Notes: generated by a model not told the origin, from the letters alone. 64,000 bases of DNA from Capsulimonadaceae bacterium (GCA_965215505.1 OZ244065.1:1024001-1088000); one strand, 5' to 3'. Shown: positions 6,994 through 36,122, counted from the first letter of the stretch. Program-made: numbers and translations.

Positions 6994-8202
6994 ATGATCC
7001 AGGACGTTGATGAGACTTTAAGCGCTCTGTTGTCCGCCGAACTGAGCAGGGTCCCCGGCTGCGGCATTACCGACCGGGGACAGATCACCTTCGACCCACC
7101 CGGCGTGGCGGAGGGAGCGGCGGCAGACTCGATGCGCCTCAACCTCTACCTACACGATGTTCGCGAGAACCGCTCCGTCCGTGAGAGCGGCCTGCGGCTC
7201 ACCCGGAAGCCCGGCGAGGACACGGTCGGCGTGCGCCGCCCCCCCGTCAACCTCGACCTCTCCTACCTCGTCACCGCCTACGCCGGGGGCGACGCGGCGG
7301 GGGAACACCGCCTGCTGTCGGAGGCGCTGGGCGTACTGCTCCGCTTCCAGGACGTGCCGGGAGAGTACCTGCGCGGCGTCTTGGAAGAGCAGGGCGTCAC
7401 GCTCGCCGTGGCCCAGCCGGACCACCTCGCGAGCGCCGACCCGCCCGCGCTCTGGCAGGCCCTGGGGGGGCGGATGCGGACCGCCCTCAGCCTGGTCGTC
7501 ACGGCGCAGTTCAACCCCTACGAGACGCGCTGGACCAAGGTGGTGCGCGAGATGGTGATCGGCGTCGGCCTCGGGACGCCGCCGCACGGCCCGCAGCGCC
7601 CCCTGGACGTTTCCTCCATCCGGGTCAGCGTGGCGGGCGTCGTGCTGGACCAGGGCGCGGAGGCGCCGCTGCCGGGCGCCCGCGTGGCCGTGGAGGGCTG
7701 TCCGGGGGAAGCGACCACGGACGCGGGCGGCTTCTTCTCCCTGCTCAACCTGCCGCCCGGCCCGCACACGCTCCGGGTCAGCCGCGCCGGCTACCGGAGC
7801 CGGGAGGCTCAGGTGGTCGCGCCCGCCCCAGGGCACCCCGAGCAGCTGGAGCCGTGCGTCATCACGCTGCACCCGCTGGGAGACGCCGAGCGCGCCCTGG
7901 AGGCGGCGGCGCGGGCGGCGGAGGCCCGCAGCCTGCCGGGCGTCGCCGACAAAGGCCGCCTGTACCACGCCTCCCTGTCCGGCCTGCTCCGCCGCGAGGA
8001 CGGCCTCCCCGCCGCCTATGTCTCGGTCGAGGCGGGCGGCAAGCGGACCACGACCGACGCCGACGGCATCTACTGCTTCCTCGACCTGCCCCCCGGCCCG
8101 CACACGATCACCGCCGACCTGCCGGGGGTTGGACTGCGCGAAATCACCCCCGCCTCCGCCGCCCCGAGGCAGGAAAAAACGGCCACAAAAAAATCTTCGT
8201 AA
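6994..8202 (+). CDS. CIS cap/tail-terminator protein (DUF4255, Pvc16/Afp16-like) with two C-terminal carboxypeptidase-regulatory-like beta-sandwich domains
   Basis: MIQDVDETLSALL, ITFDPP, LNLYLHDVREN, LDLSYLVTA, EHRLL, LWQALGG, LSLVVT. Then GVVLD...PLPGARV...TTDAGGFFSLLNLPPGPHTL, repeated as TTDADGIYCFLDLPPGPHTI. Confidence 0.88.
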   Translation: MIQDVDETLSALLSAELSRVPGCGITDRGQITFDPPGVAEGAAADSMRLNLYLHDVRENRSVRESGLRLTRKPGEDTVGVRRPPVNLDLSYLVTAYAGGDAAGEHRLLSEALGVLLRFQDVPGEYLRGVLEEQGVTLAVAQPDHLASADPPALWQALGGRMRTALSLVVTAQFNPYETRWTKVVREMVIGVGLGTPPHGPQRPLDVSSIRVSVAGVVLDQGAEAPLPGARVAVEGCPGEATTDAGGFFSLLNLPPGPHTLRVSRAGYRSREAQVVAPAPGHPEQLEPCVITLHPLGDAERALEAAARAAEARSLPGVADKGRLYHASLSGLLRREDGLPAAYVSVEAGGKRTTTDADGIYCFLDLPPGPHTITADLPGVGLREITPASAAPRQEKTATKKSS

Positions 8203-8217
8203 ACACGCCGCATGTCA

Positions 8218-8246
8218 TTGACAAAGCGTGGAAGTGGTGATACAAT
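8218..8246 (+). promoter_or_regulatory. Sigma70-type promoter (extended -10) for the main CIS operon
   Basis: TTGACA-N17-TACAAT with TG before the -10; about 420 nt upstream of the sheath ATG. Confidence 0.75.
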
Positions 8247-8668: not shown

Positions 8669-10570
8669 ATGCCAGAGTATCTCGCCCCAGGATTGTTCGT
8701 CGAGGAGATCGACAGCGGAAGTAAACCCATCGAAGGGGTCGGCACCAACACGGCCGCCTTCATCGGCTACGCCAAGAGCGGGCCGTTCAACAAGCCGACC
8801 TTCATCAGCGACTGGACCTCGTTCTGCCGCTGGTTCGGCGAGGAGGAAAACGGCCTCACCGCCGCGCTCTGCGCCGAGCTGGGCATGACGGTGTCCGAGG
8901 TCCGCACCGCCAAAGAGGCCTCGCGCAAGGGCTGGACCGAGTTCGCGTCGGCCGCCGTGGACAAGGCGGCAAGGGAGAAGAAGACGGCCACGGTCAAGAG
9001 CTTCCAGCAGCTCCTGAAGGACTACAAGATTGACCGCAGCGGCCTCCCGTACATGGAGGACAGCTACTTGGCGCATGCCGTCAAGGGCTACTACAACAAC
9101 GGCGGCGGGCGGGCCTACATCGTCCGCATCGCTCACCCCAACGACATGAAGGCGCTGGCGGGTAAGCCGGAGGCGGGCACCAAGCCGGTCCGGACCGAGG
9201 CCGCCCCCGCCCAGATCACGGCCGGGCCGCTCCTGCTGACCGCCCAGAAGCCGGGCGCGGCGGGCAACGACATCAAGGTCGAGGTCGAACACGCGGGCGA
9301 CGGCAATGAGTTCAAGCTCAAGATCACTCAGGGCGACGGTGCCCCCGAGATGTTCCCGCCGAACCCCAAAGACAAGCCGCTCACCCTGGAGAGCGTGGCA
9401 GAGACGATCAACCGGCACTCCAAGCTGGTCAGGCTGGAGGTGGCGAAAGACGTCGCCACCGCCGCGCGCCCCGACATGAAGGTCTTCGTGCTGGCGGGCG
9501 GGGCCGAGGCGACCGAGACGCAGCTCGCCAAGGCGTCCGGCACGACCGCCCTCGCCCCCGCCGGCTCGCCGCTCTCCAACGGGCTTGCCAGCCTGCGCGC
9601 GGACGACTTCATCGGCGACGCCGCCCAGCGCAGCGGGCTGGGCGGCCTGGTCCCCGTGGACGGCGTCAACATGATCGCCATCCCGGACCTGATGGCGGGC
9701 GTCTGGAAGCGCGAGAAGATCCTCGTGGGCGACAAGGAGGAGTTCACCGAGGAGACGCTGGTCCTGGACGACAAGCGCCGCGAGGCGATCCTCGCCGACC
9801 AGGCCGCCCTGGTCCAGCACTGCGAGCTGGCGGGCTACCGCATGGCGATCCTCGACCCGCTGCCCGGCCTTTCGCCGCAGGAGGTCAACGACGTCACGAT
9901 GGGGGTCAACTGGGGCTGTGAACACGGCCAGGCGGCCATCTACTACCCGTGGATCAAGATTGCCGACCCCGTGAACAAGGGCCAGCAGATCTTCGTGCCG
10001 CCGTCTGGCCACATGGCGGGCGTCTGGGCGCGCGTCGGCGGCGAGCGGGGCGTCCACAAGGCCCCCGCTAATGAGGCCGTCATGGGCGCGGTGGGCATGG
10101 AGGTGCAGGTCACCAAGGGCGAGCAGGAGATCCTGAACCCCAACGGCATCAACTGCATCCGCTCCTTCCCCGGCACCGGCATCCGCGTCTGGGGCGCGCG
10201 CACCCTGGCGACGCGCGGCAACCCGTCCTGGAAGTACGTCAACGTCCGGCGGCTCTTCAACTACCTCGAAGAGTCCATGGAGCAGAACCTCCAGTGGGTC
10301 GTCTTCGAGCCGAACGACATGGACCTCTGGGGCCGGGTCCGCCGCAACATCTCCGCCTTCCTCTACACCGAGTGGAAGGAGGGCAAGCTGTTCGGCGGTG
10401 CGCCGCAGGAGGCGTTCTACGTCAAGTGCGACGCCGAGACGAACCCGCAGGAGATGATCGACCTGGGCCGGCTGTACTGCGAGATCGGCGTGAACCCGGT
10501 CAAGCCCGCCGAGTTCGTCATCGTCCGCATCGGGCAGTGGTCCGGCGGCGGCAGCATGGCCGAGGCATAG
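8669..10570 (+). CDS. Contractile tail sheath protein (Afp2-4/Pvc2-4-like)
   Basis: MPEYLAPGLFVEEI, IEGVGTNTAAFIG, YYNNGGGRAYIVR, AIYYPWI, VPPSGHMAGVWAR, GVHKAPAN, WGARTL, YVNVRRL, WVVFEPND, PVKPAEFV. AAAGGAG RBS. Confidence 0.97.
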   Translation: MPEYLAPGLFVEEIDSGSKPIEGVGTNTAAFIGYAKSGPFNKPTFISDWTSFCRWFGEEENGLTAALCAELGMTVSEVRTAKEASRKGWTEFASAAVDKAAREKKTATVKSFQQLLKDYKIDRSGLPYMEDSYLAHAVKGYYNNGGGRAYIVRIAHPNDMKALAGKPEAGTKPVRTEAAPAQITAGPLLLTAQKPGAAGNDIKVEVEHAGDGNEFKLKITQGDGAPEMFPPNPKDKPLTLESVAETINRHSKLVRLEVAKDVATAARPDMKVFVLAGGAEATETQLAKASGTTALAPAGSPLSNGLASLRADDFIGDAAQRSGLGGLVPVDGVNMIAIPDLMAGVWKREKILVGDKEEFTEETLVLDDKRREAILADQAALVQHCELAGYRMAILDPLPGLSPQEVNDVTMGVNWGCEHGQAAIYYPWIKIADPVNKGQQIFVPPSGHMAGVWARVGGERGVHKAPANEAVMGAVGMEVQVTKGEQEILNPNGINCIRSFPGTGIRVWGARTLATRGNPSWKYVNVRRLFNYLEESMEQNLQWVVFEPNDMDLWGRVRRNISAFLYTEWKEGKLFGGAPQEAFYVKCDAETNPQEMIDLGRLYCEIGVNPVKPAEFVIVRIGQWSGGGSMAEA

Positions 10571-10643
10571 CCTCCGCCCGTCTCGCCCGGCCGATCGCGG
10601 ACGCCGGGCGGGACTCTCACCCTGACACGAAAGGACAGATACC

Positions 10644-11078
10644 ATGGCAGAAGTAACCGGCGCAGTCAGTTTCTACATCGAGGTGGACGGAATCACCGAG
10701 GGCTTCTTCAAAGAGGTTTCCGGCGGCGACATTGATGTGGAAGTCATCGAGCATCGGGGGTCGGGCAAGACCGGCGAGCAGGTCATGTACAAGATCCCCG
10801 GCAACGCCAAGTACGGCAACATCACCATGCGGCGCGGCGTCACGGACGACACCAAGCTGCACGACTGGTTCCAGAAGATCCTGGACAAGGGCGTCGAGGG
10901 CAACCGCAAGAACGGCTCCCTGACCGGCTACGACAAGGCACAGAAGGAGGTCTACAAGATCAACTTCACCAACGCCTGGCCCTGCAAGGCCAAGGGCTTC
11001 GTGGTAGACGCCTCCAAGAACGAGTTCACCCTGGAAGAGTTCGAGATGTGCGTCGAGCGCATCACCCGCGCCAAGTAG
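10644..11078 (+). CDS. Tail tube protein (T4 gp19-like, Afp1/Pvc1)
   Basis: FYIEVDG, FKEVSG, KIPGNAKYGNITMRRG, RKNGSL, FTNAWPCK; follows the sheath gene. Confidence 0.95.
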   Translation: MAEVTGAVSFYIEVDGITEGFFKEVSGGDIDVEVIEHRGSGKTGEQVMYKIPGNAKYGNITMRRGVTDDTKLHDWFQKILDKGVEGNRKNGSLTGYDKAQKEVYKINFTNAWPCKAKGFVVDASKNEFTLEEFEMCVERITRAK

Positions 11079-11127
11079 GCGAGGAGGCCGAGTAACGGAA
11101 AACAGTAACCACGGAAAACAGTAACCA

Positions 11128-11722: not shown

Positions 11723-14700
11723 GTGAAAGACAAAGTGAAGACACAGACTCTGATTGAACAAGCGGGCATTGGAGCGGCCGGGAGAAAAGCCAGTGCGTTC
11801 GCCCACGCGCTCGGGGCGCGTTATCACGCCTACACGCAGCACCTTGACTCGGAAACTTACCAAGACCCCGCCACCCATCAATCAAGAACCTATCAGGATG
11901 GCGATCTTACCGGGCCGTATTATCCTAAGTCTGGATACCACGGGCCGCAGTCCGTGTCGCCGTGGCAGACCCTCACGGGTGCCGGAACGGTCGTGTACGT
12001 CAATGGAATGAACAACAACCTGGCCGCGCATGTGGAAGCCGCACAGGCCACAGCAGACAAAGAGAAACACCCAGTCGTCGGGGTCTTCAATGCTACAGGC
12101 ATCACTAAAGCCACGAAGCTTGCGAGCGCCGTCCTCGGCAAGACTTGGAGTGGGCGCCTCGGGACCGGCTTGGGCCTTGCTGCGGACGCGGCCCAATGCC
12201 TTTCGGATGACGAAGGTGATTTTCTTAACAACCCGGCGATCACAACCCTGGTCGAAGTACTGAAACGCGGCTCAAACCGAAACATCGTCGCACATTCCCA
12301 GGGCACACTCATTGTCACCGCCGCGTTGAGGCGGCTAAAGGACAAGGACAGCAAAAAGCGTCGAGACTTCTCCGGCTACAACATTAAGTTCTTTGGCAGT
12401 CCCGCTTCCACGCGCATCGTCGGCCCGAACTACGTCGACGACACATCCAACAACGACGACGCCGTAGCCTCCTTCGCGATGGATGGCTTGTCGCTGCTCA
12501 GGAACACGCGCCGCTTGCCGAAACTGCTGCTGGCTCAGGTCGGCATTCACACCTCCGCCTTCGGTGATAATGAACTCAGCCGCTACAACAATCGCATCCT
12601 GACGCCGGACCGCGGGAAGTTTATCGGGCCGCACAACTACGAAAATTATGAGAACGCTTCCCCCACTTTCGACGAGTTGAGCAACGGCAGGGCGCACCTC
12701 CCGTCACACACGCCTAAGCTGGAGAAGACGACTTGGCCGGCGACGCTACGCGCCCTGACCGGCTATAACGCTTGGGGGCCTGCCGCCGCCCGCAAGGCGA
12801 CTAGTGTATCACGCTCCGTTCTCTCTGGAACACTTAATGCACGGAGGTGGATCGGTTCTCGCGCACACGCTTTGAAAGACTGGGCAGGTTCGAAGGCTCA
12901 TGCGGCCTTCAGTTGGTCACGAGATACAGCCCGCGCTGCTGGCAACCGGCTTGACGGTGAAGCCCACGACTCCGGCCAGTGGATGCTTCGGAACCGGGAA
13001 TGGATCGGCGATACCCTGCACGAAGCCTCCACAGTATTTGGTGTTCTCGCCGCAGTGTTGGGTGTTACCGCCCTGGCCATTCCTCCTACGGCACCGTTTC
13101 TGGTGCCGGCGGCTCTGACGTTCGGGGCGGCGGCCGCCGCCGCGCGGGCCTGGCACAGCACCAGCCTGGCGGTCGGGACGATTGACGGCAGCGTCCGCCC
13201 GGAGGCGGCGCTGAATGAGGCGAAGTGGGCGGCCGTGGACACGGCCCTGTCGGTCGCCACCGTCAGCGTCTCCAACGCCCGCTTCATCGCGAGGGCGACG
13301 ACCGTTCCTGGGATGAAGGCCGTCGCGCCGATGCTGAACAATCCGGCGAATACGGCCGTGACGCTCAACCACATCTTGCAGCAGACCAACAAGCTGTTCG
13401 GGCTGAAACTCGGCCTGATCCTGCGGAACCCGATGTTGGCTGCACGGCTCGGCTGGGTCAGCAAGGCCCTCGCCACGGCGAAGTTCGTGAAAAAATTGGT
13501 GGAGATGGGCACGTCCCGCCTCCTCCGCATCGCGCACGGTGTAGCGCACGGCATCGCGGGGGGGGCTAAGTCCGCCTGGAACTTTGCCAAGGATACGGGA
13601 ACTGGACTGCGGCATTGGGGCGAACAGAGAGCACATCAGGCCGGTGAGTTTTTCCATAACCTCAAGGAAAAGTACTACCCCTCGCCTAAGCACGACAATG
13701 CCTCGGGCAGCGCCGCGCAGGACATCGGGCAGTGCGCTACCGACAAGTTTGGCATTCTGGGAATGGGCATGCGCAACGCGGCCACCAACACACTGGCCGG
13801 GGTCATCGGACGGCATGGCAGCCCGACGGCCAAAAACAGCGAGCTGGACCTTCACGCCCATTCGCAGAGCGGCATGAGCGTCTCCGAGGCGTTCCATCCG
13901 CGGGACGGTATGAGCGTCTCCGAGGCGTTCCATCCGCAGGGCGGTATGAGCGTCTCCGAGGCGTTCCATCCGCAGGGCGGTATGAGCGTCTCCGAGGCGT
14001 TCCATCCGCGGGGCGGTATGAGCGTCTCCGAGGCGTTCCATCCGCGGGGCGGTATGAGCGTCTCCGAGGCGTTCCATCCGCGGGGCGGTATGAGCGTCTC
14101 CGAGGCGTTCCATCCGCGGGGCGGTATGAGCGTCTCCGAGGCGTTCCATCCGCGGGGCGGTATGAGCGTCTCCGAGGCGTTCCGGCAGTTGAAAGGCAAG
14201 AGGAAGGACGTGCGCGGGCCGGATGTCCCCACGTTCGGGAATGCCGCCTGGTCCCTGCCCACCCATCTGCTCGGCTACCATAACCATGCGTTCGGTTCCG
14301 GTGTCATTCCCACGCGCGGCGGCTCTACCGCGGGCATCGGGGCGCTCCTGCGGACACCATTTAATCAGTCAAATCCTTTGAACCCGTTCCTGGGCCTGCG
14401 AGGCATGGTTTCCACCCCAGATGCCCATTCGCGGGGCGGCATGAGCGTCTCCGAGGCGTTCCATCCGCAGGGCGGTATGAGCGTCTCCGAGGCGTTCCGG
14501 CAGTTGAAAGGCAAGAGGAAGGACGTGCGCGCGCTTCCTTTCCTGACCGGCCGGAAGCCGAACACTGTCTGGAGCGCACTGGATCGCGGGGTTCGCGGCG
14601 GCAGTAGCGGCTTGGAGCGTGGCCTGCGTGGAAGCGGCACGACTCTGGACACCGGCCTGCGCGGGAGGGGCCAGGACTTGGACACGGGCTGGCGCAACAG

Positions 14701-25955: not shown

Positions 25956-26348
25956 ATGCCGCAGCATGTCTGTAACGGCGCGGTGATGATGTGTTCGTTC
26001 GGCGTCGCCCCCTCCACGCTGATCGTCCTGCCGATCAACCGGGTGCTGACCAGCAATCAGCCCGCCGCGAACATCATGGACCACCTACCGATGGTCAACG
26101 TCATGCCGTTCGGGATGTGCATGACCCCGAGCAACCCGCAGGTGGCGGCGGCCACGGCGGCGGCCCTGGGCGTGCTGACGCCGATGCCCTGCGTCCCGAT
26201 GACGGAGGCCGCGCCCTGGGTGCCCGGCGCGGTGACTGTCCTGGAAGGGGGCCAGCCCGCCCTGGACAACACCTCCCAGCTCCTGTGCATGTGGGGCGGG
26301 GTCATCACGATCTCCGTGCCGGGCCAGTTCACCGAGGAGATTCCCTGA
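25956..26348 (+). CDS. PAAR-like spike tip protein (DUF4280)
   Basis: VCNGA...CSFG, PAANIMDH, PFGMC, NPQVAAATAAALGVLTPMPCVP, WVPG, CMWGGVITI. Confidence 0.93.
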   Translation: MPQHVCNGAVMMCSFGVAPSTLIVLPINRVLTSNQPAANIMDHLPMVNVMPFGMCMTPSNPQVAAATAAALGVLTPMPCVPMTEAAPWVPGAVTVLEGGQPALDNTSQLLCMWGGVITISVPGQFTEEIP

Positions 26349-26755
26349 TGCCCGACCCGACCAAAGACTTTTTGGGAGCCGGCTGGAAGTTCCCGCCGCG
26401 CCTGGATGCGCGGGGCTGCATCGAGCTGGTCTCGCAGGAGCAGGACATCGAGGAGGCCATCCAGATCATCCTGCTGACCAACAAGGGCGAGCGGCCGATG
26501 CGGCCCGAGTTCGGGTCCGAGCTGTCCCGGCTGACCTTCGCGCCCATCAACACGGCCACGGCGGGACTGGCCGCGCGCTACGTCCGCGAGGCCCTTGCCC
26601 GCTGGGAGCCGCGCATCGGCGTCACTCAAGTCTACGCGCAGCCGGACCCCGGCCACGAGAACCGCCTGATGATCAGCATTGATTACACCATCCCGGCGAC
26701 GAACTCGGACCGGAACCTCGTGTTCCCGTTCTACACGATCCCCGGAGAAGACTGA
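26348..26755 (+). CDS. Baseplate wedge protein gp25/GpW (Afp9)
   Basis: DFLGAGWKFP, DIEEAIQIILLT..GERPMRPEFGS, WEPRI, NLVFPFY; TGATG coupling with the upstream stop. Confidence 0.95.
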   Translation: MPDPTKDFLGAGWKFPPRLDARGCIELVSQEQDIEEAIQIILLTNKGERPMRPEFGSELSRLTFAPINTATAGLAARYVREALARWEPRIGVTQVYAQPDPGHENRLMISIDYTIPATNSDRNLVFPFYTIPGED

Positions 26756-26791: not shown

Positions 26792-28954
26792 ATGTCCCTG
26801 AACGCGCCCAACCTCGACGACCGCACCTTCCAGGACATCGTGGACGACGTCAAGCGCCAGATCGGGCGGCGCTGCCCGGAGTGGACCGACCACAACGTCT
26901 CCGACCCCGGCGTCACGCTCATCGAGCTGTTCGCCTGGATGACGGACATGACGCTGTTCCGGCTCAACCAGGTCCCCGAGCGCAACTACATCAAGTTCCT
27001 GGAGATGATCGGCGTCTCGCTCCAGCCGCCCGCCCCGGCCCAGACCGACCTGCGCTTCCGCCTGTCCCGCGTCATCGAGGACCGGGACGGCGAGGAGGCC
27101 TTCGAGCGCCTGCTGCGCGCCCGCGAGACGGTCGCCGCCACCGTCCGCACCGACACCGAGATGTCCATCGAGTTCGCGACCGACGAGGACCTGCGCCTGG
27201 TCCGCCCCCGGCTGACCTATGTGACGGCCCTGCCGGCCGCCGAGGGCGGCGTCCCGAGCGAGGACGGGGCCGGGGCGCGCGACTTCATCGCGGGGAAGGA
27301 GGCCGCCGGGCAGGAAGCGTTCCGGCTCTTCAGCCCCGTCCCGCGCAGCGGCGACGCCCTGTATCTGGGCTTCGGGGGCGACGTTTCGGGCAACCTCATC
27401 CAGCTCGAGGCGGCCTGCGTCACCTCGGCGGCGACCGGGCTGGACCCCGACTACCCGGCCCAGCGCTGGGAGGTGTGGAACGGCGTCGAAAGCCGGTGGG
27501 ACGTTTTACAGGACGTGCGTGACACCACCTGCGGCTTCAACCTGCCGCCGGGCCGGCTTTATCAGGGCGAGCCGACCGGCCTGATCGAGCTGCCCCTGCC
27601 GCCCGGCCTCCTGCCGCGCCTGATCGGCGGGCGGCGCGCGACCTGGGTCCGGTGCCGCTACACCCCGGACCTGCCGCCGCGCGGCCCGGAGGGGAAACGC
27701 CCCACGCCTTACCAGAAGCCGCCGGAGTTCACGCGCCTCGAAGCCCGGACGGTCGGCGGCACCGCCCCCGCCTCCAACTGCGCCACGGTGAGCTTCCGCG
27801 ACCTGGGGCAGAGCGACGGCGCTTCGGGCCAGGTCTTCCGGCTCGCCCACCGCCCCATCCTGCCGCGCCGGCCCGGCGAGACGATCCTGATCGGGCCGCA
27901 GGGGACGCCGCGCGACGAGCTGGCCGAGTGGACCGAGGTGGAGGACTTCTCCGAGAGCGGGGCCGAGGACCGCCACTTCGTCTGCGACTCGGCGGCCGGA
28001 GAGGTCCTGTTCGGGCCGCTCGTCCCCGAGCCGGACGGCGGCAAGCCGCGCCAGTACGGCGCGGTCCCGGAGCGCGGCCACACCATCACCTTCTCGGCCT
28101 ACCGGCACGGCGGCGGCACGCGCGGGAACGTCGCGGCAGGCCAGGTCAGCATCCTTAAGTCCTCGATCCCGTACATCGCCGAGGTGACCAACCCGCGCCG
28201 CGCCGACGGCGGCCGGGAGCAGGAGATGCTGGAGCGCGCCAAGCTGCGCGCGCGCGCCATGCTGCGCCAGCGCGAGCGGGCGGTGACGGCGGAGGACTAC
28301 GAATTCCTCGCGGCCCAGGCCTCGTCGGGGGTCGCCCGCGCCCGCTGCGTCCAGCCCCGCGCCGTCCACGGCGCGGGCACGAACGGCGAACACATCCCGC
28401 CGGGCGTCGTGCGCGTCCTGCTCGTTCCCGCCCTGGGCGAAGCCGTGACGGTGCCGCGCCCCGCCGACCTGCACGTCCCGCCGCGCATCCGGCAGGACGT
28501 CCAGGAGTATCTGGACGAGCGCCGCCTGCTCACGACCGTCTTGGAAGTCGGCGAGCCGGAATACGTCTACGTCTCAACCGACATCACGCTGGTCGCCGAC
28601 CCGAGGGCGGACGCGGACCAGGTCGTCCGGGGCGTCCGGGCGCGTCTGGAAACCTTCCTGCACCCGCTGCGGGGCGGCCCGAACGGCGACGGCTGGCCGT
28701 TCCGCCGAGGCCTGCGTCTGGCCGACCTTTACGCGCAGGTCCAGGCGGCCTCGGGCGTCGCCTTCCTGACCGACGCCAGGATCTACGTTTCCCGCGTGAC
28801 CAACCCACAGGACGGGCTGTTCTCGCCGGAGCGGCAGGTTTCCAACGCGGAAGGCGTCCCGATGGGGGACAACGACCTGATCTGCACCCGCGAACACCGA
28901 ATCCGTGCCATCCCGATGTCACAGGTGGGACAGGAAGACGCGGCCTACGCCTGA
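26792..28954 (+). CDS. Baseplate assembly protein, baseplate J-like (Afp11/Pvc11)
   Basis: PNLDDRTFQDIV, PEWTDHNVSDPGVTLIELFAW, RLNQVP, YRHGGG..GNV, RAVTAEDYE, FLHPLRGG...GWPF. Confidence 0.95.
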   Translation: MSLNAPNLDDRTFQDIVDDVKRQIGRRCPEWTDHNVSDPGVTLIELFAWMTDMTLFRLNQVPERNYIKFLEMIGVSLQPPAPAQTDLRFRLSRVIEDRDGEEAFERLLRARETVAATVRTDTEMSIEFATDEDLRLVRPRLTYVTALPAAEGGVPSEDGAGARDFIAGKEAAGQEAFRLFSPVPRSGDALYLGFGGDVSGNLIQLEAACVTSAATGLDPDYPAQRWEVWNGVESRWDVLQDVRDTTCGFNLPPGRLYQGEPTGLIELPLPPGLLPRLIGGRRATWVRCRYTPDLPPRGPEGKRPTPYQKPPEFTRLEARTVGGTAPASNCATVSFRDLGQSDGASGQVFRLAHRPILPRRPGETILIGPQGTPRDELAEWTEVEDFSESGAEDRHFVCDSAAGEVLFGPLVPEPDGGKPRQYGAVPERGHTITFSAYRHGGGTRGNVAAGQVSILKSSIPYIAEVTNPRRADGGREQEMLERAKLRARAMLRQRERAVTAEDYEFLAAQASSGVARARCVQPRAVHGAGTNGEHIPPGVVRVLLVPALGEAVTVPRPADLHVPPRIRQDVQEYLDERRLLTTVLEVGEPEYVYVSTDITLVADPRADADQVVRGVRARLETFLHPLRGGPNGDGWPFRRGLRLADLYAQVQAASGVAFLTDARIYVSRVTNPQDGLFSPERQVSNAEGVPMGDNDLICTREHRIRAIPMSQVGQEDAAYA

Positions 28955-30178: not shown

Positions 30179-31363
30179 GTGCCACTGGAAACCATGATCG
30201 CGAACAAGATCACCGGCATCCGGCCATTCAACGAGCTGCCGATAGACGCCGAGATCTGGAAGCAGGCGCACGACCACCACCACCTGCACCGCTATTTGCA
30301 TGCGGTGGCCGCCCACCGGCCCGGCGTCGTCACCGGCCTGGAAGTGGTCGCCTCGACGGTCAAGGACCGCACCGTCGTGGTCGCGCCCGGCGTCGCAATC
30401 GACTCGGAGGGGCAGACCCTGGTCGTCTCCGCGCCGGTCCCCCTGGAGATAGACCCGGTGCGCGGCAACGTCTACGTCACGCTGGCCTTCCAGCGCGAGC
30501 GGGACACGCGCTCCGCCGTCACCGTGGGCGGCGGGCAGGAACACTACCGGGAGATGGAGGGGCGCAAGCTGATCACGGTCAAGGAGCTGCCGAAGACGGC
30601 CTATATCGAGCTGGCGCGCATTTACTCGTCGGCGGCGGACAAGCCCGTCAAAGACGCCGCCAACCCGTCCGCCCCAGCCTTCGACGAGGTCAACCTGCTG
30701 TTCCGCCCGCTGGCATTCCCGCACTGCTACGCCGACACATCGGTCGGGGAACTCTCCTATGTGCCCAAGACGACCGCCTCGCCCTGGAACCCGAACCGCT
30801 CCGGCCTGTGGAACCTGCTGCGGGAGGGCAGCGGGCGGGGCTTCCACCTCGGCTTCACCGGCACCCTGGGATTGAAGGCGCTCGGCGCGGGCCAAGACGC
30901 CGGGCCGGAGCCGTCGCTGCTGTATGTGGCCGGGCGTCAGGGCTTCCAGCCCTTGGGGGAGCCGGAGCAGGACGGCCTCAAGAGGTTCCTTGACGGCGGC
31001 GGCCTGCTCTTGGGGGAGGCGGGGCAGGGCAGCGCGGAGTTCGCCGACGGTTTCAAGGAACTGGCCGGGAGGATGGGCGCGAAGCTGAAACCGGCCGGGA
31101 AGAGCCACCCGCTCCTGACCGCGCACTACGTCTTCTCCGCGCCGCCGCCCGGCGGGCAGGGTCAGGGCGAACTCCTGGCGGACATGGAGGCGGGCATCGT
31201 TTTCAGCAGCTACGACTACGGCGCGGCCTGGTCGGGGGAGGTCGAGAGGCCGGACGCGCCCGACGCGCGCGAGCGGATTCGGCAGGCCCAGGAGTTCGGC
31301 CTGAACTTCATCGCCGCCGCCGCCCGGCGGCGGCGGTTCCGCGAACTCGCCCGCCTGGGCTGA
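30179..31363 (+). CDS. Tail-fibre-root-like N-terminal domain fused to a DUF4159-like domain
   Basis: HDHH...H..AAHRPGVVTGLEV...VVVAPGVAIDSEGQ (Afp13/Pvc13-type root). C-terminal LLYVAG...LKRFLDGGGLLLGEA...HPL...DYGAAW...FGLN. Confidence 0.72.
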   Translation: MPLETMIANKITGIRPFNELPIDAEIWKQAHDHHHLHRYLHAVAAHRPGVVTGLEVVASTVKDRTVVVAPGVAIDSEGQTLVVSAPVPLEIDPVRGNVYVTLAFQRERDTRSAVTVGGGQEHYREMEGRKLITVKELPKTAYIELARIYSSAADKPVKDAANPSAPAFDEVNLLFRPLAFPHCYADTSVGELSYVPKTTASPWNPNRSGLWNLLREGSGRGFHLGFTGTLGLKALGAGQDAGPEPSLLYVAGRQGFQPLGEPEQDGLKRFLDGGGLLLGEAGQGSAEFADGFKELAGRMGAKLKPAGKSHPLLTAHYVFSAPPPGGQGQGELLADMEAGIVFSSYDYGAAWSGEVERPDAPDARERIRQAQEFGLNFIAAAARRRRFRELARLG

Positions 31364-31398
31364 GGCATCTTCGGCGACAGCATCCAACAGAGGAGATC

Positions 31399-33687
31399 GT
31401 GGCACGAGTGGCAAGAACCAGAGGGCCTGAAAAGCTCAGTTTTGTGCGGAATCCCGCCCTCGGCAGCCTCCTCGCCGCGCCGGCGGGCGGGCGGGCGGAG
31501 GCGGAGTTCGATTTCATCAACGACAGCCCCGAGGTCGCGGCTTTCGAGCTGGCGGTGGACGGCCTTTCCCCGGACTGGCTGGGCGGGGTCGGCCCGCAGT
31601 CCGGCGCGATGGCGGCGGCCTCGGGCGGCGGCACCCTGCGGCTGCTGGTGGCCCCGCCACTCACGGCCAGTGTCGGCCAGTACGACTTCTCGGTCCGCAT
31701 CCTGTGCGGGGGGGATGCCATCGCGCCCGCGACCCCGCTCGTGCTACAGGTCGAGCCGGCGGCGGAGGCCTCCCCACTGGCCGCTACGCCCACAGCGCCG
31801 CCGCTGCCGCCGGAGCCGGTCACGGGTGCCGCCATGGTCTTCGCGCCCGAGCCTGTGCCCGAGCCTTTCGCCCCGGCGGCGGAAGCGGGGCAGGCCGAAC
31901 GGCCGCCCGCGCCGCGCCGCCGTCCGGTCGTGTCCAAAACGCCTCCCGCCGAAGCGCCCACCGTTGAAGCGCCCGCCACCGAAGCGCCCGCTGCCGAAGC
32001 GCGAGCCATTGAGCCGCCGCCCCAGCCCGACCCAGTTTTCATCGCGCCCCCTCCGGTTTCGGCGGCTCCCCCTACCCCGCGCGCCAATGTGGTGCCGCCG
32101 GCCCCCGCGCCGGTCCCCCGGCCGCGCCCCGCCGCCCCGCCGCCCGAGGAAGAGGCGGTCCTGGTGGAGCATCAGGCCGCCCCCGCGCGGGCGCTGCCGG
32201 CGGAAGAGGAGGAAGCGCCGCCCGAGGTGGAAGCCGCCCTCGTTGACCTCGCGGACGGTGGCGCCGTCGCCCTGCGGCCCGGCGAGACGCGGCTGCTGCG
32301 GTTCACCTTCACGAACGAGGCCGCGCGGGAGACGACCTACGTCCTGGATGAGGACCAGTCCCTGCCCGGCGACTGGCTCACACTGGTACAGGACCAGGTC
32401 AACCTGATGCGGAACGGCCGGGGCGACGTCTCCCTGCGCCTGTCCCCGCCTTTGAACTCCGAGCCGGGCGACTACCCGTTCTCCGTCACGCTGGGGCCAC
32501 AGGGCGGCATGCTCACGCCCCGGACGCTGACCCTGACGGTGCAGGCGACGCCCGCCGTGAAGCTGACCAGCAAGGAGAAGGCCGTCCGGATCGGCCCGAT
32601 GGCCTCGTCCGCCGACTTCCACCTGACCGTCGAGAGCGCGGGCAACGCCGACACCGCCTTCCGCGTCGCGGTGATGCCTTCACAGGCCGCCGTGGGCGGG
32701 GAGGCGCGCGACGCGAAGCCCGTCTACGACACGCCGCAGTGGCAGTACCTCTTCGACAAGGAGCTGGAAACCCTGCGCGCCCCCGCCTCGCGCCAGCCGC
32801 CGCGCCCGGTGCCGATCCGCCTGCGCCTCCAGCGCAAAGGCCCCTGGTGGTTCGGCTTCCGCGAGACACACCAGGTCCGGGTGGCCGCCGTGCCGGTGAC
32901 GGACGGGGCGAACGGCGGCAAGCCCGTCAACACCGTCGAGGTGACCGCCACCCGGCTCCGCTTCTGGCCGATGCCCTACCTGACGCTGGTTCCCCTGCTC
33001 CTGATGCTCCTGCTGCTCGGGTCGAGCGGCGCGGGCGACCTGACGGTCCCGGACGGCAAGTATCAGTACCATGACGGCGAGACGAACGTCTACTGGGTCG
33101 CGACGCCGGGGCCGAAGAAGGATGTCAGCCTGGAATGGGACGCGCCCAGGACCGCCCTGCTCCGGCTGGGCGGGTCGCTGGGGACGAACCCGGTGTTCAG
33201 CCGCACCACGCTCGGCGGCGGGGAATACGCGGGCCAGATCACCATGAACTCGTCCGACCCCTCGCTGGACTACAACTATCAGATCAGCCGCCTGGTCGGC
33301 GGCGGCGACCGCAGCGTCGCCGTGCGGTTCGTGCAGACCTCCCTCGTTACCCCCCTCGGCGTGAAGGACACGACCGGGACGCCGCGCGCACTGCCCGGAA
33401 CCGAGGTGACGCTCCTCGTGCCGGTGGGGAAAATCGCCAAGCTGACTTTGAAAAACGAGGCGCGGGCCTCCAACGCCCTGAACTGGTGGCTGGTCAAGCC
33501 GCTCGGCCCTTCGGCCTCGTTCAAGGTCCTGTACAGCAAGAACGCAGGCTCGCTCCAGCAGCACCAGGCCATTGACTATCCCATCGTCGGCGCGGGCGCG
33601 GTGGGTGACACGGACCAGCTGGTCTTCGTCACGACCGACGCCGCGAAGCCCGTCCTGACCGTCAAGCTGAAGCTGGTCTCCCGCTAG
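31399..33687 (+). CDS. Bitopic membrane protein with COG1470-like Ig domains and Pro-rich linker (CIS-associated)
   Basis: Repeated GLSPDW...PP...GQYDFSV / LPGDWLT...PP...PGDYPFSV and SAGNADT. One TM segment (WPMPYLTLVPLLLMLLLLG) with a beta-rich C-terminus; no signal peptide. Confidence 0.75.
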   Translation: MARVARTRGPEKLSFVRNPALGSLLAAPAGGRAEAEFDFINDSPEVAAFELAVDGLSPDWLGGVGPQSGAMAAASGGGTLRLLVAPPLTASVGQYDFSVRILCGGDAIAPATPLVLQVEPAAEASPLAATPTAPPLPPEPVTGAAMVFAPEPVPEPFAPAAEAGQAERPPAPRRRPVVSKTPPAEAPTVEAPATEAPAAEARAIEPPPQPDPVFIAPPPVSAAPPTPRANVVPPAPAPVPRPRPAAPPPEEEAVLVEHQAAPARALPAEEEEAPPEVEAALVDLADGGAVALRPGETRLLRFTFTNEAARETTYVLDEDQSLPGDWLTLVQDQVNLMRNGRGDVSLRLSPPLNSEPGDYPFSVTLGPQGGMLTPRTLTLTVQATPAVKLTSKEKAVRIGPMASSADFHLTVESAGNADTAFRVAVMPSQAAVGGEARDAKPVYDTPQWQYLFDKELETLRAPASRQPPRPVPIRLRLQRKGPWWFGFRETHQVRVAAVPVTDGANGGKPVNTVEVTATRLRFWPMPYLTLVPLLLMLLLLGSSGAGDLTVPDGKYQYHDGETNVYWVATPGPKKDVSLEWDAPRTALLRLGGSLGTNPVFSRTTLGGGEYAGQITMNSSDPSLDYNYQISRLVGGGDRSVAVRFVQTSLVTPLGVKDTTGTPRALPGTEVTLLVPVGKIAKLTLKNEARASNALNWWLVKPLGPSASFKVLYSKNAGSLQQHQAIDYPIVGAGAVGDTDQLVFVTTDAAKPVLTVKLKLVSR

Positions 33688-33719
33688 GGGCGGCCCGGCC
33701 TCCCTCCAAGAAAAAACCC

Positions 33720-36122
33720 ATGAACCTTTTGCACCCCGAAGTCGAGATCACGCCGGGCAGGCGCGGCAAGCAGGGCTACCAGGACCGCGACAAAATGGCG
33801 GGGAGTGCCGTCCTGCGCCTGGTCAACGAGACCACCCAGGAGAATGCTTTCACGGTCCGGCTGCGCTGCGACAACCCGTTCTGGCAGGAGGGATGGTACA
33901 CCGTCCAGTCGGTCGCCGCCCCGCCCGGCGCGACCGCCCCCGCGACCGGTCAGGCCGACATTCCCGGCCACAACAAGCGGTCCGTCAAGGTCTTCGTCCC
34001 GCCGAAAGGCACGCGCGACATCCTCATCCGCTTCGACGTCCCGGAGCGGCCCGAGTCGCGCGCGGGCCGCTACGACTACGTCATCGAGGTGGAGACGCAG
34101 GTCACCCGGCCCCAGGAGGGGGCGGCGCGGCGTAAGGACCGACTGACAACGATCCCGGCCGCCGCGAACGTGCGCCCGTTTTACAAGTGGAGCCTGGACC
34201 TGACGCCGGAACAGCAGCGGGCGACGCGCCGCCGCCGGTCGGGGGAGTTCGAGGTGGTGGTGACGAACGAGGGCAACGATTGGCTGTACTGCGACCTCCA
34301 GCTCCCGCGCCCGAAGGACCTCCTGCTGGAGTGCCCCACCCTGCGCCTTGCCGTGCCGCCGCCCGAGCCGGGCGAGATGCTGCCCGGCGTCGGCATTCAG
34401 GAGGGTGCCCCCGGCACGCAGCGCGTCGTGCCGCTGCGGGCGACGACGCGGCTGAAGGCCTTCCGGGGCGACCTGACGCCCCAGCCGCTGACTGTGTCCG
34501 CCGTGCGCGTGGACGCCCCTTCGCTGCCGCCGCCTGCCGAGGACGGGTACTTGAGTCTGGGGTCGGTGGTAGCCTCGGCCACCAACCCGCCCGAGGTCAA
34601 GCCCTCACCGAGCGACCGCGCCCTGATCTACTCGCCGCCCATCCCGTCCAAGCTGCTGGACTTCTTCAGCCGTGGCGTCGGCGGCTTCCGCGCCTGGATC
34701 GCGCCGCTCCTGGCCCTCATGGTCATGGTCCCGCTGGCCTATGTGCTGATCCAGCACCTCTTCTTCTCGCCGCAGATGAAGAAGGGCTACACCTTCGGCA
34801 CCACCAACCTCGCGGCCGGGGGGAAGCCGCTCTACATCTCCGGGAAGCTGGTGGTCGGCTCCCACTTCACGCTCACGAACCCCACCGGGACCGTACTGGC
34901 CGAGGGCGACGTCAAGCTGGACAAGCGGGACCCGGCCCACGCAAGCCCGAACAAAGGCGTCATCGCGATTCCGGCCACCGTGACCAACGTCCACGCCCTG
35001 CTCACGGTGCGGCGGGTCCCGTTCCTGCCGTTCCTCTCGGCGGCCCTGCCCAAAGACCAGCAGGCGATAGACATCGGCGATGTCAGTGCCCCGGCGGTCC
35101 CGCAGGTGACGAAGCTGGCCGACGGCGTCTACAAAGTGGGTGCCGTCGTGGAGATAGGCATCAAGGGCTTCGCGGCCCCTGGGACGGTCATGGTTGATCA
35201 GATCGCGAAGCCGCCCCTCACCTGGACCGTCGACAGCGTGACCATCCGGGTGCCTCAAGGCCCCCCCGGCAAGCAGTTCGCGCTGGCGCTCCAGCCGATC
35301 GGCTCGTCCCAGGCCGTTCCAGCGGGCAGCATCACTATCGCCCCGGCAGTCCCCATCCGAGTCGCCAATAATGGTGCGGGAGGCGGAGGCACTGGAGGCG
35401 CTAAAACCGGTGGGGGCGGGGCCGCCAAGTCAGGCATCGGAGAAGCCAAGGCGGGAAGCACGAAGGCCGGGGCCGTGAAGACCGCTTCAGGCGGCAAGGC
35501 CGGCGGGAGCATCGGCAAGGCGGCGGCCGGGTCACCCCCGGCCCCGACGCCCCCGGCAAACATTGTCGCCCTGCCCACCGTCTTCCACGGGAATTCGCAG
35601 GCGGCCTACACCGCGCTGCTGGCGGATGACCTCGCGGGCGCACTGAGGCACGCGCAGAACTCGGACGCCTTCGGCCAGGCCATCAGCGCGTATGTCTACG
35701 CCAGGCAGGGGAACACGGGGGCGGCGGAGCCGCTGATCGCCGCCACGTCGGGCAGCAGCGATCCCCGGACGAAGGCCATGGCATTGGCCGCGCAGGGAGC
35801 CACCCAGGAGGCGGCCAGCCCCGGCCTGGCCGTTCAGAGCTATGACGCCGCGGTGGCCGCAGACCCAGGCCTGGTCGTCGCCTACACAGCCAAGGCTATC
35901 CTGCTGGATAAGAACGGCTCTACGGAGGCGGAGAAGAACAGCTCGGGCCTGGCGCTCAACAGCGGGATGAAGCAGGCGAAGACGCCGGACGAGAAGGCGG
36001 CGATCCTGTACACGCAGTCGAAGATCTATGCCGCCACGAACCGGGGGCCGTCCGCCAGAAGACTATACAACGCAGCCCTCACCCTAAAGCCCAACCTTCC
36101 GCGCCCGGCTGGCCTGCCCTGA
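33720..36122 (+). CDS. Bitopic membrane protein: N-terminal Ig-like domains, TM helix, IPT-like domain, Gly/Lys linker, C-terminal TPR-like helices
   Basis: PESRAGRYDYVIEV, VRPFYKW, VTNEGND; TM AWIAPLLALMVMVPLAYVLIQHLFF; TPR-like AVQSYDAAVAADP and ARRLYNAALTLKPN. Confidence 0.75.
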   Translation: MNLLHPEVEITPGRRGKQGYQDRDKMAGSAVLRLVNETTQENAFTVRLRCDNPFWQEGWYTVQSVAAPPGATAPATGQADIPGHNKRSVKVFVPPKGTRDILIRFDVPERPESRAGRYDYVIEVETQVTRPQEGAARRKDRLTTIPAAANVRPFYKWSLDLTPEQQRATRRRRSGEFEVVVTNEGNDWLYCDLQLPRPKDLLLECPTLRLAVPPPEPGEMLPGVGIQEGAPGTQRVVPLRATTRLKAFRGDLTPQPLTVSAVRVDAPSLPPPAEDGYLSLGSVVASATNPPEVKPSPSDRALIYSPPIPSKLLDFFSRGVGGFRAWIAPLLALMVMVPLAYVLIQHLFFSPQMKKGYTFGTTNLAAGGKPLYISGKLVVGSHFTLTNPTGTVLAEGDVKLDKRDPAHASPNKGVIAIPATVTNVHALLTVRRVPFLPFLSAALPKDQQAIDIGDVSAPAVPQVTKLADGVYKVGAVVEIGIKGFAAPGTVMVDQIAKPPLTWTVDSVTIRVPQGPPGKQFALALQPIGSSQAVPAGSITIAPAVPIRVANNGAGGGGTGGAKTGGGGAAKSGIGEAKAGSTKAGAVKTASGGKAGGSIGKAAAGSPPAPTPPANIVALPTVFHGNSQAAYTALLADDLAGALRHAQNSDAFGQAISAYVYARQGNTGAAEPLIAATSGSSDPRTKAMALAAQGATQEAASPGLAVQSYDAAVAADPGLVVAYTAKAILLDKNGSTEAEKNSSGLALNSGMKQAKTPDEKAAILYTQSKIYAATNRGPSARRLYNAALTLKPNLPRPAGLP

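Follow-up and report, generated by a model that had tools for sequence, protein, structure and literature searches.

We describe here a contractile injection system (CIS) encoded at positions 6994-36122 of a 64,000-nucleotide stretch of DNA, hereafter the window, from a Capsulimonadaceae bacterium (GCA_965215505.1, OZ244065.1:1024001-1088000; G000:C1:1024001-1088000 in our numbering of genomes and contigs). The genome is one contig of 6,177,771 bases, and one strand of the window was read. Sequence comparison makes this locus an Armatimonadota-specific branch of the type IId injection systems, hence a member of the characterised subtypes, since its sheath and Baseplate_J proteins best match those of Streptomyces CIS and since the gene-content marks of IId are present. 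It is not a new category: a IId core is joined to a presumptive membrane-docking module of its own and to an ATPase cassette that is facultative in the clade. The module consists of three clade-specific genes, which encode a soluble adaptor ending in a DUF4159 domain and two large bitopic membrane proteins of 762 and 800 residues (m762 and m800). We consider the chances to be about evenly balanced that this trio docks the particle, baseplate first, at the inner membrane. A preliminary description of the same DNA had seen a complete CIS that ends in two single-pass membrane proteins. That inventory is borne out by Pfam for the particle parts other than the tape-measure candidate and by a hairpin at the end of the locus, with the amendment that the adaptor gene and two small genes at 11128-11636 had been missed.

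Results

Kinship and distribution

Compared with all PDB sequences, the sheath matched two Streptomyces CIS sheaths (S. coelicolor, 8bky/9gtp) at 464 and 453.5 bits, the next of the 21 matches scoring 321 bits. Matches to the sheaths of PVC, AlgoCIS, Anabaena and Afp stood at about 150 bits (153 for Anabaena) and covered the C-terminal 200 residues only. Residues 1-707 of the Baseplate_J protein aligned with residues 1-648 of S. coelicolor chain 9gtp_1K at 375.8 bits, and the next of its four matches scored 34.9 bits; 9gtp is the S. coelicolor CIS baseplate, according to PMC12237407. A sheath match was also present in 151 plasmid records, and among the matches listed those with a query cover of at least 87% came from Streptomycetaceae, Deinococcus and one Paenibacillus. 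In a maximum-likelihood sheath tree of 23 rows, whose references are plasmid-borne loci only and include no labelled IIa, IIb or IIc rows, the eight Armatimonadota rows formed one clade (100/100) on a long stem. This clade adjoined two Streptomycetaceae rows at 83/84, and together they fell inside an unresolved group with Deinococcus and Nostoc, Afp and Persicobacter lying far off. Moreover, the census of Chen et al. (2019) gives as marks of IId a contiguous VgrG (Afp8), a single Afp11 gene and an Afp10-like gene, the PAAR-like Afp10 being present in I, IIa, IIc and IId (their Table 1). All three are found in the window locus, with an uninterrupted VgrG, one Afp11 gene and an Afp10-like DUF4280 gene. 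The distinct subtype proposed in the preliminary description therefore holds as a sub-lineage proper to Armatimonadota and fails as a group outside the characterised subtypes. The CIS of Chloroflexota and Deinococcota are likewise IId and were seen unattached in the cytoplasm, according to Gaisin et al. 2026 (PMC12998442). In the IId-type locus of a Deinococcus psychrotolerans plasmid (L042), a FHA-domain Ser/Thr kinase of about 1590 residues and a vWA protein stand between the CIS genes.

Among 401 sampled Armatimonadota genomes, some sheath match was found in 55 and the clade sheath, defined by at least 59% identity over nearly the full length, in 18; the next-best match was partial, at 42%. 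The DUF4159 protein was matched in 20 genomes, over its full length in 18 of these, and accompanied the clade sheath in 17 of the 18 genomes with that sheath. The exceptions were G282 (88% complete), which has the sheath without a DUF4159 gene, and G329 (1090 contigs), which has the gene without the sheath. Genes for m762 and for the N-terminal domain of m800 were each present, next to one another, in all 18 genomes with the clade sheath, and were not found in G329. The order Cis11, Cis12, DUF4159 protein, m762-position gene and m800 was kept in the loci mapped with enough flank, with the proviso that tblastn returned no match for the m762-position gene of L022 and L023. Ten related loci are named as Armatimonadota, Chthonomonadaceae, Fimbriimonadaceae, Fimbriimonadales or Fimbriimonas, and named homologues exist in Capsulimonas corticalis (CCAX7_63120, CCAX7_63140).

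A collection of 5.8 billion proteins yielded, at the thresholds used, 148 homologues of the DUF4159 protein, 51 of m762 and 58 of m800. Their source names were all Armatimonadota except for one contig of 33,641 bases that carries all three proteins and is labelled Janthinobacterium lividum (a metagenome-assembled genome; P0010, P0068, P0116), which is probably mis-binned. None of the three proteins had a tblastn match at E 0.01 or better in the loci of S. clavuligerus or Deinococcus psychrotolerans. Literature searches returned no paper that pairs 'contractile injection' with Armatimonadetes, Armatimonadota or DUF4159, and the supplementary tables of the censuses of extracellular CIS (eCIS) may list such loci. 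In two genomes the locus is divided: on contig C3 of G004 (L022, L035/L036) the half from cap to VgrG and the half from gp25 to m800 lie about 92 kb apart, and on contig C13 of G002 (L019, L037) some 105 kb separate the baseplate half from the cap gene, which has no sheath gene beside it.

The adaptor

The adaptor gene occupies the fibre (Afp13) position, ahead of m762 and m800. Its product has no hydrophobic segment and is the best conserved of the trio, with 49-91% identity to the window protein and a mean column identity of 62% among 44 aligned sequences. The AlphaFold2 model (pLDDT 87.7, pTM 0.82) comprises two soluble domains. It was searched against all 48,161 PDB representatives; the top 50 rows were considered, and those with a range within about residues 19-221 were assigned to the N-terminal domain, two enzyme rows extending across both domains (2vdj, 1cf9) being left out of this count. 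The C-terminal domain superposed on Hoch_4089 (4i66) with Z 21.0 and a root-mean-square deviation (rmsd) of 2.1 Å, and more weakly on class-I glutamine amidotransferases. As a nucleophile-elbow cysteine was not apparent in the DUF4159 alignment, read by eye, this domain is taken as a non-catalytic, GATase1-like fold.

All 11 rows for the N-terminal domain were phage receptor-binding proteins (RBPs), tail fibres or baseplate proteins, TssK or an Anabaena CIS baseplate chain, with Z between 7.2 and 9.4. They comprise the RBPs of the lactococcal phages 1358 (9.4) and p2 (7.4), the tail fibre (8.9) and baseplate (8.4) of HFTV1, the fibre of cyanophage A-1(L) (8.8), Mtd (8.1), the phi812 baseplate and SPP1 gp22 (7.2 each), TssK twice (8.3 and 7.3) and the Anabaena chain (7.3). 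In a re-alignment of Foldseek-ranked entries, phi812 baseplate chains reached 11.1 and 11.0. TssK scored 7.3-8.6 over both searches at an rmsd of 6.4-7.4 Å, phage RBPs scored equally or higher, and the TssK head is unrelated to that of the adaptor. The shoulder fold of RBPs is re-used in TssK by the type VI secretion system (T6SS). Because the class of matches is consistent, the Z values being middling, the N-terminal domain of the model probably has the baseplate-docking shoulder fold of RBPs and TssK. The ESM Atlas gave leads only for this domain: the best matches (0.89) were unnamed clusters, and lower ones included viral DUF4815/Caudo_bapla_N and a Chloroflexota DUF4159 cluster. Five histidines (H31, H34, H37, H41 and H46) that are invariant in the 44 sequences lie on one predicted helix, C183 is also invariant and H182 nearly so; this set could serve to bind a metal or to respond to pH as a switch.

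The two membrane proteins

As the preliminary description had stated, each of the two terminal proteins has one hydrophobic segment, and this segment was kept in 37 of 38 aligned rows of m762 and in all 39 of m800. No row of either protein (0/38 and 0/39) had a hydrophobic segment in the first 40 residues. For m762 an orientation with the N-terminus inside and the C-terminus outside is predicted well from the lack of a signal peptide and from the charge bias, lysine and arginine residues within 15 positions of the transmembrane segment numbering 109 on the N-terminal and 28 on the C-terminal side in 37 rows. For m800 the same orientation is predicted from the lack of a signal peptide and from the nature of its C-terminal domains. 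The AlphaFold model of m800 (pLDDT 81.9), in which Ig domains are confident on both sides of the helix, contains beta-sandwiches (1-305), a helix (310-348), beta domains (350-540), a disordered Gly-rich part (544-622) and TPR (626-789). The N-terminal 320 residues are its conserved part, and the C-terminal half varies among homologues, with TIG, TPR or PASTA domains. TIG and PASTA domains usually lie outside the cytoplasm.

Neither protein matched a Pfam family, some m762 homologues being annotated as COG1470 or NEW3-domain proteins. With Foldseek the m800 model matched generic tandem-Ig arrays only (ciliary ASH-type, complement, titin), which assign no function. A complex prediction with residues 280-521 of m762, residues 1-310 of m800 and the whole DUF4159 protein scored 0.00, which, the run having no controls, is evidence in neither direction. 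In Streptomyces, firing requires CisA, a bitopic protein with its N-terminus inside, whose gene comes straight after those of the baseplate and whose cytoplasmic part is described as largely unstructured (PMC12237407). The S. clavuligerus gene at the CisA position encodes a Gly/Ala/Pro-rich N-terminal part of about 400 residues, followed by a transmembrane segment near residue 407. The parallel with CisA drawn in the preliminary description thus holds for the presence of conserved single-pass proteins right after the baseplate genes and does not extend to sequence, as nothing matched at the S. clavuligerus CisA position.

The ATPase

The lack of a recognisable AAA+ ATPase was confirmed, and its proposed role as a property of the subtype was not. 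Pfam scans took in the locus open reading frames (ORFs) of at least 100 residues, together with an inspection of the gaps, and no AAA domain was found in those ORFs. With S. clavuligerus Cis15 and five clade ATPases as queries, no Cis15 orthologue was detected in the 6.18-Mb contig, where only generic AAA modules of at most 36% identity were matched, nor was anything matched in the window. PF22977, the WHD domain, had no match in the genome; PF22977 and AAA were both found by Pfam in the one clade ATPase scanned (G071). The S. clavuligerus protein (L041:13266-15389, an 'ATP-binding protein' beside a DUF4255 gene) matches the genome through residues 495-676 only, its AAA module. Two TPR-AAA proteins, of 420 residues (genome 886695-888020) and 458 residues (1815646-1817031), were rejected as Cis15 orthologues, since they share the AAA module only, at 31-36% identity; both lie at least 137 kb from the CIS locus, and the 420-residue protein is the best match (35.5% identity).

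A strong Cis15-like match (E 2e-65 to 3e-75) was nonetheless present in seven of the 18 clade genomes (G299, G189, G282, G268, G045, G071, G319), whereas in the other 11, including that of the window, the best match was 1.3e-17 or weaker and confined to the AAA module. The ATPase is therefore facultative in the clade, two of its bearers belonging to the same genus as the window genome, and its absence is not a mark of the clade. Six of the seven genes belong with the clade locus or its membrane genes, as the G319 copy adjoins a second, different sheath on another contig. The gene stands between the tube and DUF4157 genes in G299, upstream of the cap gene in the same-genus G268, 1.5 and 2.2 kb downstream of m800 in G189 and G045 (2.5 and 3.2 kb by tblastn match), 8-9.5 kb downstream of m800 in the same-genus G071 and, by coordinates (not by tblastn), about 4 kb downstream of m762/m800 on the same contig in G282. 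A short Pvc16_N gene (206-236 residues) directly precedes it in all four loci examined (G071, G189, G299, G045). Because the location of the DUF4255 and ATPase pair, within the locus or close to it, differs between genomes, the pair behaves like a mobile unit. Such pairs were noted at L046 14014-16607, L048 about 10067-12677, L050 9564-12208 and L051 6039-8969, as well as in Streptomyces, and in G189 the pair is followed by an eCIS_core protein of 399 residues.

Given that ATPase-bearing genomes stand on both sides of the deepest split of the clade in the sheath tree, the simplest reading is an ancestral ATPase with several losses, the absence in the window genome being a secondary loss; gains of a mobile cassette are a possible alternative. 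All five sampled genomes of family f11 are without Cis15, one of them a single contig rated 99% complete; two assemblies, G341 and G346, are fragmented. The 11 genomes without the ATPase keep sheath, m762, m800 and DUF4159 protein as full-size open frames, save for one internal stop in the G143 sheath. The D. psychrotolerans plasmid locus gave no Cis15-like match in the 20 kb that flank its sheath gene in each direction. Eight core subunit types, Afp15 among them, were defined in the 2019 census, in which more than 85% of eCIS-like loci encode at least eight. Seven core types (Afp1/5, Afp2-4, Afp7, Afp8, Afp9, Afp11, Afp16) are present in the window locus, all over the Pfam gathering scores. 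To our knowledge, the purpose of the Cis15/Afp15 ATPase is unsettled.

Particle genes and surroundings

The locus consists of 18 genes on the plus strand (Table 1), all of them intact long ORFs without stops or frameshifts, between an EF-Tu gene (minus, 5525-6718) and a TPR gene (minus, 36178-37107). The G+C content along it is about 63-74%. It is the single CIS locus of the genome, with one Pvc16_N and two gp19 matches genome-wide. A search of sequencing runs listed 16 that contain the stretch, none of them recorded as RNA.

Table 1. Features of the CIS locus, with positions in the window
Feature	Position	Strand	Basis and remarks
Sigma-70-like promoter site, TTGACA-17-TATACT, 5' of cap gene	6910..6938	+	11/12 positions; consensus match only
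Cap/terminator protein (Afp16/Cis16 type), Pvc16_N (DUF4255) and two CarboxypepD_reg	6994..8202	+	Pvc16_N E 7.5e-30; CarboxypepD_reg E 2.3e-26
Second promoter-like site, 5' of sheath gene	8218..8246	+	11/12 positions, TG ahead of -10 hexamer; consensus match only
Contractile sheath (Cis2/Afp2-4 type), 633 aa from conserved MPEYL start	8669..10570	+	Phage_sheath_1, Phage_sheath_1C
Inner tube protein (gp19/Cis1a type)	10644..11078	+	Phage_T4_gp19 E 4.6e-33
Small conserved protein, 116 aa	11128..11478	+	76% identity over 114 aa to same-position ORF in same-genus G268
Second small conserved ORF, about 52 aa, without obvious start codon	11478..11636	+	Peptide ...RYPSD.LYEEVAYIAYHFHW... kept in G268
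2036-aa protein, eCIS_core (DUF4157) at residues 1071-1145	11723..17833	+	eCIS_core E 3.3e-24
Conserved small protein, 105 aa	17937..18254	+	49% identity over 78 aa, same position in G268; no Pfam family
Second tube-family protein (Cis1b/Afp5-type tube initiator)	18289..18843	+	Phage_T4_gp19 E 1.1e-42
1423-aa Pro/Ala/Ser-rich protein at tape-measure position	18866..23137	+	No Pfam family; block 671-931 kept in relatives
Baseplate hub/tube initiator with LysM (Afp7/Cis7)	23199..23969	+	CIS_tube E 1.7e-30; LysM E 2.6e-4
VgrG-like spike (Afp8/Cis8), one contiguous 644-aa ORF	24003..25937	+	Phage_base_V E 2e-30; Phage_GPD E 1.1e-10
PAAR-like spike tip (DUF4280)	25956..26348	+	DUF4280 E 6.9e-35
gp25-like baseplate wedge/sheath initiator (Afp9/Cis9)	26348..26755	+	GPW_gp25 E 1.8e-24; ATG overlaps preceding stop codon
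Baseplate_J wedge protein (Afp11/Cis11)	26792..28954	+	Pfam; only scanned locus ORF matching Baseplate_J
P2_I-type wedge protein (Afp12/Cis12), N-terminal extension about 210 aa	28976..30142	+	Tail_P2_I E 8.9e-15 at residues 218-359
Lineage-specific adaptor, 394 aa: N-domain about 20-183, DUF4159 C-domain 186-383	30179..31363	+	DUF4159 E 5.3e-9
m762, 762 aa: NEW3/COG1470-like beta-sandwich domains, Pro-rich linker, transmembrane segment 522-540, C-domain	31399..33687	+	
m800, 800 aa: two Ig-like domains (1-305), transmembrane segment 326-344, Ig-like domains, Gly-rich linker, TPR	33720..36122	+	
Perfect 14-bp GC-rich hairpin between convergent m800 and TPR genes	36131..36162	.	Centroid -32 kcal/mol for hairpin alone

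The locus opens at ATG 6994 and closes at the m800 stop at 36122. A longer cap ORF starting at 6856 is probably too long, because the promoter-like site lies within it at 6910-6938; relatives of the cap protein align from residue 47 of this longer ORF, in agreement with a start at 6994. Unlike the fused cap gene here, DUF4255 and CarboxypepD_reg are encoded on a Nostoc plasmid (L056 275-1459) by two genes next to each other. The hairpin at the end has a z of -4.34, none of 200 shuffles folding equally well. It has no U-tract and was seen by folding alone, a consensus terminator scan of both locus ends having returned no site.

The 116-residue protein after the tube gene, which matched no Pfam family, occupies the position of unnamed small genes in Streptomyces and Deinococcus loci. 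Its end is overlapped, in another frame, by the second small ORF, and by analogy with the G/GT tail chaperones of phages, which arise by a programmed frameshift, the two may be translated as a coupled or frameshifted pair. The 2036-residue eCIS_core protein, a putative cargo or effector, has a hydrophobic stretch at residues 435-453 and a match to the DUF676 esterase family that is a lead only (E 0.0037, under the Pfam cut-off); DUF4157 proteins at the same place in relatives have 285-2488 residues. Its gene contains a 36-bp tandem repeat, with 9.1 copies at 13858-14183 (97% matches) and 2.1 more at 14425-14498, which encodes a unit of 12 residues (...GGMSVSEAFHPR...). The 1423-residue protein would be the tape measure by its gene position alone. 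The alignment of the P2_I-type protein to the Streptomyces gene is confined to residues 211-381.

In line with the preliminary description, Pfam scans of the ORFs of at least 100 residues and an inspection of the gaps brought to light no family of holins, endolysins or immunity proteins in the locus, smaller ORFs not being exhaustively covered and the rest of the genome not having been searched for lysis genes. Three plus-strand ORFs were rejected as genes: 5318-6808 (wrong frame, antisense to EF-Tu at 5525-6718), 11192-11692 (a wrong-frame artefact) and 36130-37152 (wrong frame, antisense to the TPR gene at 36178-37107).

Genes for proteins with a signal-like N-terminus recur beside the CIS. 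They encode caspase (Peptidase_C14) with WD40, PEGA or DUF4384, NlpC/P60 with LysM, and TPR proteins, and lie in the window at 36178-37107 (minus) and 37415-40483 (plus), and elsewhere at L029 6147-15329, L050 92-3942 and L046 6566-10742. Flanks of the caspase/NlpC/TPR type were identified by Pfam in G000, G003 and G299, those of G071 being WD40 and TPR only; the caspase-type neighbour in G005 is recognised by its N-terminal motif alone, and the caspase match of G002 lies 3 kb from its unlinked cap gene. These recurring flanks may form a module for cell death or wall remodelling that is linked to the CIS, or may be mere old synteny. Other neighbours have no visible CIS link: a kumamolisin-type pro-peptidase of 893 residues (2451-5132, plus), a Big_1/invasin/MG2-repeat protein of 1828 residues (41416-46902, minus) and a polysaccharide cluster at 48184-59157 with GT2, a Wzx-like flippase, two GT4 genes and a Wzz/GNVR tyrosine-kinase-like protein.

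Discussion

Gene content, kinship, co-occurrence, folds, transmembrane segments and the absence of the ATPase were computed here, and from them we infer a topology, a contact between adaptor and membrane proteins, a docking and a direction of firing. The particle would be assembled in the cytoplasm from cap, sheath, tube, tape measure, LysM hub, VgrG with PAAR-like tip, and gp25/Cis11/Cis12 wedges. The gene at the fibre position would supply a soluble adaptor and not a fibre, the shoulder domain docking on the Cis11/Cis12 wedge and the DUF4159 head contacting the Ig-like domains that m762 and/or m800 are predicted to have in the cytoplasm. In this way the particle would be held at, or recruited to, the inner membrane baseplate first, and the periplasmic Ig/TPR parts (PASTA in some homologues) might either extend in the direction of the wall or monitor its condition. 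On firing, the spike would be driven together with the 2036-residue DUF4157-tagged cargo through the envelope of the producer itself, with export, self-lysis or both as the outcome. The helper module of DUF4255 protein and WHD-AAA ATPase (Cis15/Afp15 type) would be optional and lost in this genome. An anchoring to the envelope had already been suggested in the preliminary description, and the TssK/RBP-shoulder-like adaptor, which it had not seen, strengthens this idea.

Several points weigh against the docking or the assignments on which it is built. In the imaging published to date, IId particles lay free in the cytoplasm (PMC12998442), and the docking is drawn from gene anatomy, the clade members being known from their genes alone. 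The sister relation with Streptomycetaceae has a support of only 83/84, in a tree without labelled IIa-c rows. The Z values of the adaptor N-domain are middling (7-11), with an rmsd of up to 6-7 Å for TssK, and Z values below 8 can reflect a common arrangement. The shoulder fold also heads the true RBPs of released particles, and the adaptor could therefore be a fibre substitute on an extracellular particle. Beta-sandwich domains of the NEW3/COG1470 type, as in m762, are usually extracytoplasmic in other proteins, and for m800 the positive-inside rule is uninformative, with 74 lysine and arginine residues near the segment on the N-terminal side and 65 on the C-terminal side. Finally, although the assembly is one contig, an unassembled plasmid carrying the ATPase is possible in this genome.

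A further-reaching form of the docking reading is that the locus is a T6SS-like machine of independent origin from IId stock, with a standing inner-membrane anchor, outward firing and delivery of the giant DUF4157-tagged effector. The shoulder/DUF4159 adaptor would then take the place of TssK and the complex of two bitopic proteins that of TssJLM, and 11 of the 18 genomes would work without a dedicated AAA+ ATPase. We regard this form as rather unlikely.

It is equally conceivable, and in our view also rather unlikely, that the particle is a free cytoplasmic CIS as in Streptomyces. The bitopic proteins would then be transient, CisA-like recruiters that respond to stress, leading to firing and to the regulated death of the producer, without standing anchor and without export to other cells. 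The closest sequence kin are indeed the cytoplasmic CIS of Streptomyces, IId particles imaged in Deinococcota and Roseiflexus lay free in the cytoplasm (PMC12998442), and CisA is likewise reported as bitopic and encoded at the same place. The lack of recognised lysis or immunity genes would suit such a system, the periplasmic PASTA/TPR parts could be sensors of envelope stress, and caspase-domain genes stand beside four of the nine flank-mapped loci (G000, G003, G299, G002), with G005 added by motif alone. On the other hand, the folded and strongly conserved Ig-like cytoplasmic domains and the shoulder adaptor resemble a stable docking, whereas the cytoplasmic part of CisA is largely unstructured in the published description, and no sequence likeness to the Streptomyces gene at the CisA position was found. 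The two readings differ mainly in the duration of the contact, which sequence cannot tell.

Release of the particle by lysis of the producer, with the DUF4159 protein as receptor-binding fibre and the membrane proteins serving release or the envelope unattached to the particle, appears distinctly improbable. The fold of the adaptor N-domain is that of phage RBPs and tail fibres, in the Afp13 position, eCIS loci typically encode a large cargo with a DUF4157 tag, and lineage II eCIS loci often have unexplained subtype-specific genes (Chen et al. 2019). However, the Afp locus of pADAP has a lysis protein, a holin and a lysozyme directly upstream, whereas the scanned ORFs of the present locus, of at least 100 residues, showed nothing like a holin, an endolysin or a spanin. 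Heads of the DUF4159/GATase1-like kind are not known to bind receptors, the structural matches here being enzymes and Hoch_4089, and release alone would hardly explain why two adjacent bitopic proteins, each with a large conserved cytoplasmic part, accompany the sheath in 18 of 18 genomes. The nearest kin, moreover, are not released, according to PMC12998442. That the locus is decaying, unable to assemble or to load cargo since the loss of its ATPase cassette, is very improbable: Afp15, a core type in the 2019 census, is lacking here and kept by two same-genus relatives, but all 18 genes are intact, the 11 clade genomes without Cis15 keep full-size frames, and the ATPase seems dispensable because it was lost without decay across the whole of family f11.

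The manner in which a CIS particle meets a membrane decides its function: the T6SS exports across the envelope, eCIS are released and attach to their targets by fibres, the CIS of thylakoids (tCIS) sit on these membranes, and Streptomyces CIS need CisA. The clade presented in this work offers a differing and genetically compact membrane solution in a diderm phylum with cultured members, and DUF4159 gains a first structural context in a CIS. The related genomes with and without the DUF4255 and ATPase cassette provide a ready comparison for the need of Cis15/Afp15. If the T6SS-like reading were true, the clade would add another way of attaching a CIS to a membrane to those of the T6SS, the tCIS and CisA, with a series of ATPase-plus and ATPase-minus members within one genus.

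Comparison with known systems

With Afp and PVC the locus shares the gp19 tube, the sheath C-domain, LysM hub, VgrG, gp25, Baseplate_J, P2_I and the DUF4255 cap. It differs from them in that a single long gene encodes the sheath, against three in Afp, and in that neither an adenovirus-like fibre nor an Afp15-type ATPase could be found; a lysis cassette lies upstream of afp1 on pADAP, and none was recognised here among ORFs of at least 100 residues.

We know of no thylakoids in this phylum. For the tCIS of Anabaena, an eCIS-derived particle is described that is anchored to an internal membrane of its producer through a re-engineered fibre-position Cis13 that carries its own transmembrane helix, together with a Cis12 extension. 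Here also the fibre-position gene is re-engineered and Cis12 extended, and the Anabaena baseplate chain 7b5h_AA/AB shares the fold of the adaptor N-domain (Z 7.3-7.6). In contrast, the fibre-position protein here is without a transmembrane helix, such helices being carried by two separate proteins, and the sheath match to Anabaena reaches only 153 bits.

The CIS-Sc/Sv systems of Streptomyces resemble the locus in the core gene set and its order from sheath to Cis12, in a contiguous VgrG, a single Baseplate_J protein, a PAAR-like gene and a DUF4157 protein, and in having bitopic protein(s) directly after the baseplate genes without a recognised tail fibre or lysis cassette. Unlike them, the locus has two membrane proteins with folded Ig-like cytoplasmic domains, where CisA is described as one protein with a mostly disordered N-terminus. 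It also has the extra shoulder-fold/DUF4159 adaptor, a cap fused to CarboxypepD_reg and a Cis12 with an N-terminal extension of 210 residues, and it is found in a diderm host, without the Cis15 ATPase and its short DUF4255 partner. Between CisA and m762, m800 or the DUF4159 protein there was no tblastn match, the S. clavuligerus locus with its CisA-like gene having been searched and S. coelicolor CisA not having been queried.

The T6SS, for its part, differs from the locus in having TssB/TssC in place of a single 633-residue sheath gene, in its ClpV, for which no counterpart was found here, and in a TssK C-domain where the head here is DUF4159. TssJ, TssL and TssM families were not recognised among the Pfam matches of the locus, no dedicated profile search being made. 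In both, genes for membrane proteins stand beside the baseplate genes, and the locus would follow the T6SS logic of a trimer-type shoulder domain on the wedge with a differing head turned towards membrane proteins. The locus may be T6SS-like in its working while not being a member of the T6SS, its core being closest to eCIS lineage II.

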